This document shows positions 16,763 to 20,275 of a DNA stretch of 25,611 nt, piece by piece. Each line of letters opens with the position of its first letter. Position 1 is the first letter of the stretch. The DNA lies in contig JBEVNF010000072.1 in assembly GCA_040508255.1 (NCBI GenBank), positions 1-25,611 on the forward strand, read 5' to 3'. This DNA is from Flavitalea sp. Its GTDB lineage: Bacteria > Bacteroidota > Bacteroidia > Chitinophagales > Chitinophagaceae. Both the position numbers and the translations under genes were made by a program. The notes below the pieces were generated by a model, which was not told the DNA's origin, searched no databases, and saw nothing but the letters and a program-made list of their open reading frames with translations.

Positions 16763-17224
16763 ATGAATCTTTTTTCCTGTGTACTTTTTGTGTACACGTG
16801 CTTTTATTTTGTAACTGCGGGCCAGGCAGTTTTTTACAGGTTATGCTTCGGGCAGGTCTTCCTGAAAATTCCCGCAACAAGTTTCCTCGTCATACGAAAA
16901 CTTGCAGATCCTTTGCTTGAACTCAAACTGAAGATCGTTTATTTTGGTGGGCTGATTACCGGAGTTGCTTTGTGTGTAATGAGTATTACTCAGCAATCAA
17001 TGTATCAGATTGCGTCAATGAGTTCCATGTTATTTTTCGTGACGGATCTCGTGTTTGCAAAAAAGTACAGTATGCCGTTAAATGAGAAGATCAGGCTTGC
17101 AACGTTGAATGATCATGCGACTGCTGTATCCTTACAGAAAGCATGGATACGATGGATACTGATCAGGGGAAATCTTGCATTGATTGGTTTTGCGGTTATT
17201 TTGCTGGCGGTTGTAATAAGCTGA
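16763..17224 (+). CDS. Integral membrane protein, DUF1772/anthrone-oxygenase-like
   Basis: 153 aa with about 4 hydrophobic helices. PLN..I followed by W..W...R before the last helix is the pattern I associate with this family. Confidence 0.55.
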   Translation: MNLFSCVLFVYTCFYFVTAGQAVFYRLCFGQVFLKIPATSFLVIRKLADPLLELKLKIVYFGGLITGVALCVMSITQQSMYQIASMSSMLFFVTDLVFAKKYSMPLNEKIRLATLNDHATAVSLQKAWIRWILIRGNLALIGFAVILLAVVIS

Positions 17225-17250
17225 AAGCCCCGCGGGGCGGGGCTTTCTAT
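17223..17250. terminator. GC-rich hairpin, possibly a bidirectional terminator
   Basis: GAAAGCCCCG-CGGGG-CGGGGCTTTC is a perfect 10-bp stem overlapping the stop codon, followed by TATTCT on the + strand. Confidence 0.75.
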
Positions 17251-17390
17251 TCTAGGTTAAATTGTGTTCAGGACGGTTGTTTTTCCCGGAATACGGATTG
17301 ATTTTCAAAGGTCAGGATTTAAAGGGTGTTCGGTCAGGGGCCTGGTTTCAAAGGATATGGGTGGTTTTCTTAGGATACGGACAATTATCT
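17223..17390 (-). ncRNA. Candidate small RNA made of degenerate ~20-nt repeats (strand inferred, not certain)
   Basis: Seven GGA trinucleotides on the + strand within 17271-17381, in recurring units like TTTTC..AGGATACGG. A -7-like CATCTTTG on the - strand (17405-17398) points into the repeats, and a hairpin closes the far end. No ORF of 60 aa or more. Confidence 0.35.
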
Positions 17391-17869
17391 GATGACACAA
17401 AGATGCGGTACAATTAAACATTCACCATGATATGTGTTGTGTTTATTGGTGAAATGAATGGTTCAGTTCAAGAAGTTCTAAAGATTACCACTTAATACAA
17501 ATGGGTTACACATAGCCGTGAGCAGGTTAATCGTGATCAATATCGAAGCTGTAACGATAAGTTGATTTGTTTTGATAATTTTTTTGTGCTAATTTAAATG
17601 AACAAACTGCTACTATGCATCAGCGTTAGTATCGCAACGATTCCGTCCCTCCGAAAAAAATCTCATACATAGATCTGCTGCAGGTTAATTATGTCAAAAC
17701 CAATGTTGGCGTTTAAATAATTTTTCCTGTGAAAAACACTTAGTCGTTCCGCCATCGCGTAAAGCATCGGCAGGACGACTTTTTCTTGCTTTCACCATTC
17801 CACCTTAAGTTTCAGCAGTTCATCACAAAGCGTTTCCTGTCTTTAATGATTTGAGAAATCTTTGCAGTT

Positions 17870-20275
17870 ATGAAGTTTACAGCCATAATTCTGTTTTGTG
17901 TTATTAGTGTATTTGCTGCGACTGCACAGGAGTCGGGCTCTTTCCGTGGAAATATTTCAGTAAATGGTGCACCACATTCCGGTGCTACCATTGCCTTGCT
18001 CAGACAAACTGATTCAGTACTGGTGAAGTTGTCGCTTTCGGATAAAGAAGGTCATTTCGAATTTCTGAATATTCCCGTAAACAAATATCTGCTTCTTGTT
18101 ACATCAGTTGGCTATGACTCAGTGTATGCGATAGCTGCTGAAGGTTCCTCAAATGATTTCACGCTGGTTGCAAAATCTCAGTCGCTCGGCACTGTGACCG
18201 TGGTTGCAAAACGACCGCTTGTTGAAGCACGTCTTGATAAAACAATAGTGAACGTTGATGCTTCACCATCCAATGCGGGTGCCAATGCGCTGGAGTTACT
18301 GGAAAAATCACCCGGGATTTCTGTTGACAAGGATGGTAACATCAGTCTCAAAGGCAAGCAGGGCGTGATCGTTCTGATGGATGGTAAGCAAACCTATCTC
18401 AGTGGTCAGGATCTTGCGAATCTTCTTCGCAGCATGCCTGCAAGTCAGCTCGACCAGGTTGAGATCATGACTCAGCCATCTGCCAAATATGATGCGGCAG
18501 GAAACTCTGGTATCCTGAACCTGAAAACCAAAAAAGCAAAAACAATGGGCTTTAATGGGAGTGTAAGTGTTGGTTATGTGCAGGGTATCTATCCGAAATC
18601 ACCCAATAGCTTTAACCTTAATTACCGCAAAGGAAAGGTGAATCTGTTTGCAAACGGAGGGTTTACTTACTGGGCCGGAAACGGTGAACAAACTTTAAAC
18701 AGGCGATTTGGACAGGGAAATCAACGTTATGTTTTTGACCAGGCGGGTGACGCACTTAATCGCAGCAGTTCATACAATGCCAGGGTGGGTGCTGATTTTA
18801 CGATCGATCCCAAAACAATCATTGGGGTTGTTGTGGGTGGAAATTATAGTCTCAGGAACAGTACCAACGACAGCCGTGGAAACTTCTTTGCTGAAAATAC
18901 AATGGTGGTTGACTCAGGTATTCTTGCATATAACAGGCAAAGAAATCCGTTCAAAAACTTCAGTGCGAATGCAAACTTCAAAAGAACATTGAACAAGAAT
19001 GGAAGGGAATTAACCGCAGATATCGATTATCTTAAATACAGTTCTGAACTTCAGCAGTTCACAGAGAACCGCTCTGTATACCCATCAAAGGCCGATGATG
19101 TTTATTATCTCCGTGCTAACCTCCCTTCAGAGATTGATATCTATACAGCGAAGATAGATTATACGCATCCATTGGGGAAAGAAGCAAAATTTGAAACAGG
19201 TGCCAAAACAAGTTATGTAAGAACTGATAATAATGCACCCTATGAAACACTTGATAAAACGACCGGCGAATGGATCGATGATGTAAGAAAAGATCATTTC
19301 AGGTATGCGGAGCAGATCACGGCAGGTTATATCAATTTCAGCAAACAGATCAAAAAGTGGGGTTTCCAGGCAGGTTTGCGGGGAGAACACACTCACTCAA
19401 AAGGTACGCAGGTGTTGCTCGCTAAAAGTATTTCGCGTGATTATTTTCAGTTGTTCCCTACTGCCTATATCAGTTATTCTATGAATGACAAAAACCAGTT
19501 TGGTCTGAATTATGGAAGAAGAGTGGAAAGGCCGAATTACCAGGATATGAATCCGTTTCAACAGTTTCTCGATCTCTACACTTTTAACCAGGGAAATCCT
19601 TATCTCACCCCTCAGTTTACTCATAACATTGAACTCAGTCATATTTTCAGGAGTAAGCTCAGTACAACTTTAAATTACACCCGTACAACAGATATTATTA
19701 ATGATATTCTTGTGCAGGACGATGAAACGAAGGTTACTTACCAGACAAAACAAAATGTTGCAACAAGGCGTAACATTGGTCTGGCAATCAGCTATAACGC
19801 GCAGCTTACAAAATGGTGGACCACCAGTTTGTATGGCAATGTTAACAACAATTATTTTGAGGGACTCGTGAATAATGCGATGCTCAGCACTGATATAACA
19901 TCGTATAATGTGAACATTAACCAGCAGTTCCGGTTTGCAAAAACATGGGGAGCGGAGGTCAGCGGATTTTATCAGAGTAAAATGTTGTTCACCAGTATGT
20001 TTTTGCTTGAGCCTATGTATGTGGTTTCATTTGGAGCAAGCAAACAGGTACTTAAAAATAAAGGAACTGTTAAGCTGAGTGTTATTGACCCTTTCCGACT
20101 TCAGCGTTCGAATGTAAAGATCGATCACTCCAATGTTGATATGTATGTGACCAATCTTTGGGATAACAGGAGGGTGGGACTCACATTTACGTATCGTTTC
20201 AGTAAAGGGCAGGCAGTTCAGCAGCGCAGAAGAGCTTCCGGTTCGCAGGACGAGCAGAATCGTGTATCCCAATAA
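17870..20275 (+). CDS. TonB-dependent receptor / outer-membrane beta-barrel family protein with an N-terminal carboxypeptidase-regulatory-like domain (not SusC type)
   Basis: Signal peptide ends ATA|Q. N-terminal Ig-like domain (GATIALL...SDKEGHFEF..I...YLL.VTSVGY), plug motifs LELLEKSPGISVD and IEIM-like QVEIMTQPSAKYDAAG..GILN, barrel strands with ERPNYQDMNPF and GNPYLTP, and a C-terminal FTYRF followed by EQNRV. Confidence 0.88.
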   Translation: MKFTAIILFCVISVFAATAQESGSFRGNISVNGAPHSGATIALLRQTDSVLVKLSLSDKEGHFEFLNIPVNKYLLLVTSVGYDSVYAIAAEGSSNDFTLVAKSQSLGTVTVVAKRPLVEARLDKTIVNVDASPSNAGANALELLEKSPGISVDKDGNISLKGKQGVIVLMDGKQTYLSGQDLANLLRSMPASQLDQVEIMTQPSAKYDAAGNSGILNLKTKKAKTMGFNGSVSVGYVQGIYPKSPNSFNLNYRKGKVNLFANGGFTYWAGNGEQTLNRRFGQGNQRYVFDQAGDALNRSSSYNARVGADFTIDPKTIIGVVVGGNYSLRNSTNDSRGNFFAENTMVVDSGILAYNRQRNPFKNFSANANFKRTLNKNGRELTADIDYLKYSSELQQFTENRSVYPSKADDVYYLRANLPSEIDIYTAKIDYTHPLGKEAKFETGAKTSYVRTDNNAPYETLDKTTGEWIDDVRKDHFRYAEQITAGYINFSKQIKKWGFQAGLRGEHTHSKGTQVLLAKSISRDYFQLFPTAYISYSMNDKNQFGLNYGRRVERPNYQDMNPFQQFLDLYTFNQGNPYLTPQFTHNIELSHIFRSKLSTTLNYTRTTDIINDILVQDDETKVTYQTKQNVATRRNIGLAISYNAQLTKWWTTSLYGNVNNNYFEGLVNNAMLSTDITSYNVNINQQFRFAKTWGAEVSGFYQSKMLFTSMFLLEPMYVVSFGASKQVLKNKGTVKLSVIDPFRLQRSNVKIDHSNVDMYVTNLWDNRRVGLTFTYRFSKGQAVQQRRRASGSQDEQNRVSQ

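Follow-up and report, generated by a model that had tools for sequence, protein, structure and literature searches.

The question raised by this locus is which strand of a short repeat tract would be transcribed, and what the resulting RNA would bind. The tract lies in the gap between two genes (17223-17405) of the window, by which we mean the whole stretch of 25,611 nucleotides of Flavitalea sp. DNA that was analysed. It had been singled out as a candidate repeat-built small RNA, with GGA motifs on the plus strand and UCC on the minus strand. Our preferred reading, to which we give a probability of about 0.7 on the strength of sequence analysis, is that a minus-strand non-coding RNA (ncRNA) of ~175 nt acts as a multi-site sponge that titrates FopS-like small RNAs (sRNAs) and thereby relieves repression.

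The repeat tract and its relatives

The locus and its neighbours comprise the following elements:
16763..17224, plus strand: convergent neighbour gene, 153-aa protein with a weak anthrone-oxygenase-like match (E 6e-4, below the cut-off)
17223..17247, both strands: perfect GC-rich hairpin of 11 bp (arms 17223-17233 and 17237-17247, 3-nt loop), seen in the sequence
17216..17393, minus strand: predicted ncRNA of ~175 nt with an A/C-rich, weakly structured body
17398..17405, minus strand: -7 box CATCTTTG of the Bacteroidota primary-sigma type, seen in the sequence, with a start predicted at ~17393
17870..20275, plus strand: divergent neighbour gene, 801-aa outer-membrane beta-barrel protein (PF14905)

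All seven GGA motifs that had drawn attention to the plus strand are present (17271, 17288, 17295, 17315, 17353, 17373 and 17379). The genome rate gives an expectation of 1.5 per 111 nt, and a count of at least seven is reached by 0.1% of the windows of that length in the genome and by 34 of 10,000 base shuffles. The four degenerate units of ~20 nt are there as described (17281-17301, 17302-17319, 17346-17364 and 17365-17382). The minus-strand box that the original prediction had placed ahead of the array was recovered as CATCTTTG at 17405-17398, and no -7 box of this type was found on the plus strand between 16901 and 17280. The perfect hairpin also exists, with 11 bp instead of the 10 that had been counted; it overlaps the stop codon of the plus-strand gene, its U-run is weak on both strands, and it is probably an intrinsic terminator shared by the two directions.

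The predicted minus-strand RNA, delimited as a promoter-to-terminator unit with orthologs, contains no AUG. Comparison with Rfam, proposed earlier as a check, gave no match at the locus up to an E value of 5 and none on the paralogous tracts. A helix closing the 5' and 3' ends was considered and dropped, as it partly relies on bases upstream of the predicted start site. REP/BIME palindromes and a CRISPR array were also rejected: the units are non-palindromic, degenerate and irregularly spaced, blastn found no copy in the genome, and there are about five tracts. Two other elements lie nearby. An imperfect inverted repeat, CATTCACCA...TGGTGAAATGAATG (17421-17481), just upstream of the minus-strand promoter, may be a regulator site or an RNA hairpin, and a GC-rich hairpin followed by a T-run (17741-17790), ~80 nt upstream of the beta-barrel gene, may be an attenuator or the end of a short plus-strand RNA.

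Homologous tracts, which the original prediction had anticipated, occur both in the source genome and in others. Motif and Markov scans of the source genome, which is 63% complete, revealed four further tracts (contigs C230, C215, C283 and C313), and we predict that it carries at least five tract genes of the sponge type. Other tracts were found in relatives and in named Chitinophagaceae records, including Puia and Niastella. Both genomes of the same genus (G001 and G002) have an orthologous tract at the syntenic position with unchanged polarity, between the same 153-aa gene, which sits downstream of a fabF-like gene, and the same beta-barrel gene. These orthologs retain the promoter box, the half-sites and the terminator, with sites weaker than those of the source locus, even though blastn misses them, and their hairpin stands at the matching place with a run of 7-9 U on the minus strand.

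The polarity of the tracts points the same way. A strict -7 box within 75 nt upstream was found on the A/C-rich strand of 18 of 27 tracts and on the G/T-rich strand of none (random non-coding rate, 3%), and a terminator downstream on the A/C strand of 13 of 27 as against 2 of 27 on the other, tallies that are indicative and overstate independence, since the tracts are mutually related and the windows were anchored at the promoter by eye. Thus, judging from these sequence features, the transcribed RNA is likely the minus strand. The idea of a repeat-built minus-strand ncRNA running from promoter to terminator is supported by the box, the terminator and this polarity, all of them predicted signals, whereas its GGA/CsrB interpretation does not apply if the likely RNA is the minus strand.

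Each tract carries between 3 and 14 sites, and no conserved fold or sequence was found in the RNA body outside them. The tracts diverge quickly, so that blastn-type searches with the tract returned few homologs or none. A promoter-anchored search pattern was too noisy, and a sequence-only tract model, insensitive and with 100 of ~2,000 candidates scored, gave matches in at least 7 of 61 genomes. With these insensitive searches, tracts were detected in a minority of the sRNA-bearing genomes. Recent tandem expansions were seen in L075 and L078. In addition, we noted a subfamily (L131, L133, L146, L163, L212 and L213), often downstream of cbs, whose sites are flanked by two conserved elements, a helix on the 5' side and a hairpin on the 3' side, and, also downstream of cbs, a stretch of ~230 nt in which an 8-mer (AACAAGT followed by A or G) is repeated in tandem (L198, G321:C34).

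FopS-like small RNAs and their predicted pairing with the tract

In Bacteroides thetaiotaomicron, FopS pairs near the start codon of SusC-type mRNAs and represses their translation; its targets in Bacteroides are outer-membrane and glycan-transporter mRNAs, and the RRM protein RbpB binds and antagonises it there (PMC11697453). FopS has been reported for Bacteroidaceae, and the redundant family of B. thetaiotaomicron resisted multiple deletion (PMC11697453). The source genome (G000) holds sRNA genes of similar design:
G000:C39:3635; C156:6-29 (cut by the contig end); C274:119-142; C500:3743-3766: seed-A sRNA genes
G000:C524:1491-1549: single-copy seed-B sRNA gene, revealed by the sRNA covariance model
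C320:8016-8078: divergent sRNA copy
C347:1-29: sRNA gene fragment

These sRNAs are multicopy and 60-65 nt long (65-70 nt for FopS), with an R1-type 5' seed at the start site, a primary-sigma promoter and a 3' terminator. The four seed-A genes share an invariant 24-nt 5' seed followed by the terminator. A seed-A covariance model found a strong match in 38 of 60 family genomes; the terminator stem covaries in 6 of 8 pairs and the seed is fixed. The core of seed B is exact, invariant and single-copy in 35 of the 60 genomes, and a third class, seed C, occurs in other genera including a large sister genus. Moreover, the variant CATCTTTG of the -7 box lies 5-6 nt ahead of the sRNA genes and also ahead of most other tracts. 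Seed A agrees with the published B. thetaiotaomicron FopS consensus in 20 of 21 bases, carries an insertion of 2 nt and lies equally far from the -7 box (PMC11697453 Supplementary Data 2). With RF04319, the C500 gene scored 18.7 bits and a seed-C gene 24.4, under the cut-off of 56, and a Bacteroidales-type control 80.9. For this reason we call these sRNAs FopS-like and not members of the family; presumably they act like FopS. An intact seed-A gene with promoter box and terminator was also observed on a 236-kb viral contig (IMGVR_UViG_3300037418_003161, L315:5815-5875), adjoining a ribonucleotide-reductase-like gene.

On the minus strand of the tract, four docking sites for these seeds are predicted (energies in kcal/mol):
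17364..17382, minus strand: site 1, 18 bp with seed B; -25.6 with seed B, -21.0 with seed A
17344..17361, minus strand: site 2, about -18 with seed A, -14.2 with seed B
17300..17320, minus strand: site 3, -16.5 with seed B, -13.2 with seed A
17279..17299, minus strand: site 4, -17.4 with seed B, -17.2 with seed A; the least accessible, opening cost 6.8

The sole mismatch of site 1 to seed B falls at the AUG position (AAG). Its opening cost is 2.4 kcal/mol, and it is the best non-coding, non-self site of the genome for seed pairing. For the whole locus and seed B, the four sites sum to -73.7 with a best value of -25.6, and neither figure was reached by any of 400 shuffled tracts or 400 shuffled seeds; for seed A, the fractions of shuffles reaching the observed values were 0 to 0.0125. 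When the whole genome was scanned on both strands, with the antisense of the sRNA genes set aside, the five tracts were the top five multi-site clusters and the source locus ranked third. Among 18 tracts, none has a stronger seed-B site than the source locus, and seed B pairs better than seed A at this tract and one other, which suggests, from this one locus, that the source decoy leans towards seed B. The units being predicted seed sites, the GGA motifs are read on the minus strand as CC doublets, which lie opposite G residues peculiar to the local seeds.

Similar results were obtained in other genomes, where 19 tracts gave 119 sites for seed A, compared to 26 +/- 20 for shuffled seeds and 1 on the opposite strand, and none of 120 shuffled seeds attained the summed energy of seed A. 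Also, at matched relative thresholds the Bacteroides FopS seed found 11 sites and seed A 179. Since tracts supplied the pattern that led to seed A, and also the patterns by which tracts in other genomes were located, part of the complementarity between tracts and seed A comes from the search itself. This circularity weighs less on seed B, which emerged from the sRNA model, and the invariance of seed A, its promoter, its terminator and its likeness to FopS are independent of the tracts. A base-pairing sponge is expected to expose sequence complementary to the target-binding seed of an sRNA encoded in its own genome, and this is predicted for the locus.

We then considered how far tracts and seeds go together across lineages. 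With the patterns used, no tract was found in seed-C genomes or in five Bacteroidales-type genomes, and a search for co-variation of tracts with further seed classes was likewise negative. At the locus downstream of cbs, a tract was present in 2 of 5 seed-A genomes, 0 of 5 with a variant seed and 0 of 7 in which an sRNA was not detected, with synteny broken in most. A class-wide pattern combining promoter and seed matched mostly the antisense of start codons, and a metagenome scan with site 1 gave two uninformative matches. The unpublished genome G399 is not used in support of any conclusion. A literature search found no description of such tracts, nor of an RNA sponge for FopS.

Start-codon avoidance, predicted targets and competing explanations

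Over the 119 sites, predicted pairing drops to 0.32-0.53 at seed positions 9-11, compared to about 0.8-0.97 on either side. At the site centre (n = 40) the perfect triplet UAU occurs twice, and UGA (12), UAA (11), UUA (6) and UUU (6) prevail; in the non-coding DNA of the genome, counted with its real start regions and the sRNA genes, UAU ranks first in the same context (15 of 73). When substitutions were compared neutrally and without gaps, those preserving a G-U pair were enriched in the sites (A>G, 0.51 vs 0.30 in the background; C>U, 0.50 vs 0.34) and the wobble-incompatible U>C was not (0.20 vs 0.29), with counts that, like those for AUG avoidance, are small and not independent. Together, the avoidance of AUG and the wobble bias favour an RNA decoy.

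With seed A, start regions had a mean of -8.6 kcal/mol, and a value of -18 or better was predicted for 10 of 2,601, so that decoy sites would compete well with real targets. The start region of the adjacent beta-barrel gene lies at the 16th percentile for seed pairing and is not a strong predicted target. Among the top 50 predicted targets, 52-56% have signal-peptide-like starts, compared to 28-31% overall, an enrichment that follows from pairing of the seed with Met-Lys starts; the upstream half alone adds little. We also observed mRNA leaders with 1-3 seed-complementary sites just 5' of the start codon (G000:C432, that is L014, and L226, L181, L164, L227 and L351), ahead of a bactofilin-like gene and of several genes with signal-peptide-like starts. 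Such leaders are probably genuine targets, and the decoys may have evolved from sequences of this kind. Two single sites contain an AUG: one, ~60 nt ahead of an ftsZ-like gene, pairs with seed B at -31 kcal/mol (L358, G236:C20:85916-85932), and the other is a seed-like site in a small promoter-to-terminator unit, where the retained AUG opens a 13-codon ORF (L229, G011:C2:181467-181515).

In the sponge model, for which we infer transcription, pairing in vivo and the direction of control, a Bacteroidota housekeeping-type promoter would drive the minus-strand ncRNA of ~175 nt, whose four tandem sites would mimic the translation-start region of an mRNA; having no AUG, this decoy would escape translation. 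The sites would base-pair with the single-stranded 5' seeds of the FopS-like sRNAs, and each RNA could titrate several sRNA molecules, so that repression would be lifted from mRNAs that start with Met-Lys, many of them for exported proteins. What was computed is the anatomy of the unit, its polarity, its paralogs and orthologs, the existence and invariance of the sRNAs, a complementarity above controls and the avoidance of AUG. In a broader version, which we consider slightly better supported than an even bet, Chitinophagaceae would possess a circuit of multicopy RNAs against multicopy RNAs, in which classes of FopS-like seeds repress over start codons and AUG-less decoys of 3-14 sites titrate them, each leaning to particular classes, the source one to seed B.

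The explanation that best withstands these data after the sponge, even if we hold it unlikely, is that the RNA pairs with the sRNAs as a substrate or partner and not as an antagonist, for example as a protein-binding or scaffold RNA of sRNA-controlled stability, or as a store or protector of sRNAs. All the evidence from complementarity and polarity fits this equally well, and the existence of mRNA leaders with 1-3 sites (L226, L181, L164, L227 and G000:C432) indicates that multi-site regions can be targets. The genome also has a single RRM-1 gene (G000:C451:1281-1490, L196), whose product is a candidate RbpB-like partner, and RbpB binds FopS in Bacteroides (PMC11697453). However, an RNA body without conserved fold or sequence beyond the sites argues for the sponge, as do a site number ranging from 3 to 14, which suits titration capacity, and the avoidance of AUG, which suits a decoy.

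Less probable is a protein sponge, as the original prediction had proposed, in which the A/C-rich RNA would titrate an RRM/RbpB-like, cold-shock, Rho or ribosomal protein that reads start-region-like sequence. The match to the sRNAs would then be secondary, both RNAs being related to mRNA start regions. The motifs are indeed repeated, unstructured and A/C-rich, Bacteroidota start regions are A-rich, and the RRM gene that the prediction had asked for is present. Yet average start regions pair weakly with the seed (the -8.6 mean and 10 of 2,601 given above), the CC doublets match G residues of the Chitinophagaceae seeds and not those of Bacteroides FopS, and a protein ligand predicts neither the wobble bias nor the 18-bp match to seed B. 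The evidence points to an RNA ligand, the FopS-like sRNAs, and not to a protein, although the single RRM protein may also play a part.

Somewhat less credible again is a DNA-level or neutral origin, in which the repeats would be protein-binding boxes, or decayed inverted copies of sRNA genes amplified by slippage, without RNA function. The recent tandem expansions (L075 and L078), the resemblance of the plus-strand units to the sRNA seed and the fast sequence turnover would fit, but not the fixed polarity with a promoter upstream and a terminator downstream, the syntenic positions retained across species, the strand asymmetry of the wobble bias or the non-random loss of the AUG triplet.

Finally, a plus-strand RNA, whether a GGA sponge of the CsrB kind or a FopS-like repressor with several seeds, is very improbable: despite the seven GGA, the units that resemble a seed and transcription that might run on from the upstream gene through a leaky hairpin, the GGA strand has no -7 box here and a promoter in 0 of 27 tracts, the hairpin lies upstream on that strand, the GGA are not predicted in exposed loops (unpaired probability 0.08-0.60, below 0.2 for 4 of 7), csrA (PF02599) was not found in the 63% complete source genome, and the anti-AUG triplet that a multi-seed sRNA would need is the one the repeats avoid.

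Comparison with known systems

The closest parallels to the proposed sponge are CrfA of Caulobacter crescentus, which sponges SisA-D, SisA being a repressor of a TonB-dependent receptor mRNA (PMC12559287), and QrrX of Vibrio cholerae, a sponge of the Qrr sRNAs (cited in PMC12559287 and PMC13501541). Like them, the tract RNA is predicted to be a stand-alone ncRNA whose pairing partner is the core conserved among the sibling sRNAs of one family. CrfA is encoded by a single gene, has a single mapped site (G49-C63) and depends on Hfq (PMC12559287). In contrast, the source genome has several paralogous genes, each with 3-14 tandem degenerate sites in which the start codon is mismatched, and its host group is reported to be without classical chaperones; there is no sequence relation.

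With FopS/GibS (RF04319, RF04182; PMC11697453), the partner sRNAs have in common the multicopy state, the size, the primary-sigma promoter, an unpaired 5' seed over the anti-AUG and the 3' terminator. They differ by the 2-nt insertion, the terminator and a score of 18.7-24.4 bits against 56. The tract RNA is complementary to FopS-type seeds and not itself a FopS, and it is proposed as an RNA antagonist where the known antagonist of FopS is the protein RbpB. CsrB, RsmY and RsmZ resemble the tract as repeat-built multi-site titrators with their own promoter and terminator, but here the predicted ligand is an RNA, the transcribed strand carries UCC and not GGA, GGA loops are absent and csrA was not found.

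The link to FopS, the second seed class, the tests of AUG avoidance and wobble, and the genome-wide ranking are what this analysis adds. If the sponge reading is correct, it would extend to Chitinophagaceae the FopS system, so far a glycan-transporter switch of gut Bacteroidaceae, and would place an RNA antagonist beside the protein RbpB, the sole one known. Because it names the ligand and a base-resolved pairing, the sponge model is directly testable, and the decoy would offer a ready-made means of silencing a redundant sRNA family.

In eukaryotes, target mimics include plant IPS1 for miR399, CDR1as for miR-7 and engineered bulged miRNA sponges. The tract shares with them a central mismatch within complementary sites and, with CDR1as and the engineered sponges, many sites per RNA. 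The machinery is different, and the mismatch of the tract removes a start codon and not a slicing site. Natural multi-site decoys that form a family and are systematically mismatched at the start codon would represent a new design and, if the sponge reading is true, a natural bacterial counterpart of the multi-site bulged miRNA sponges.
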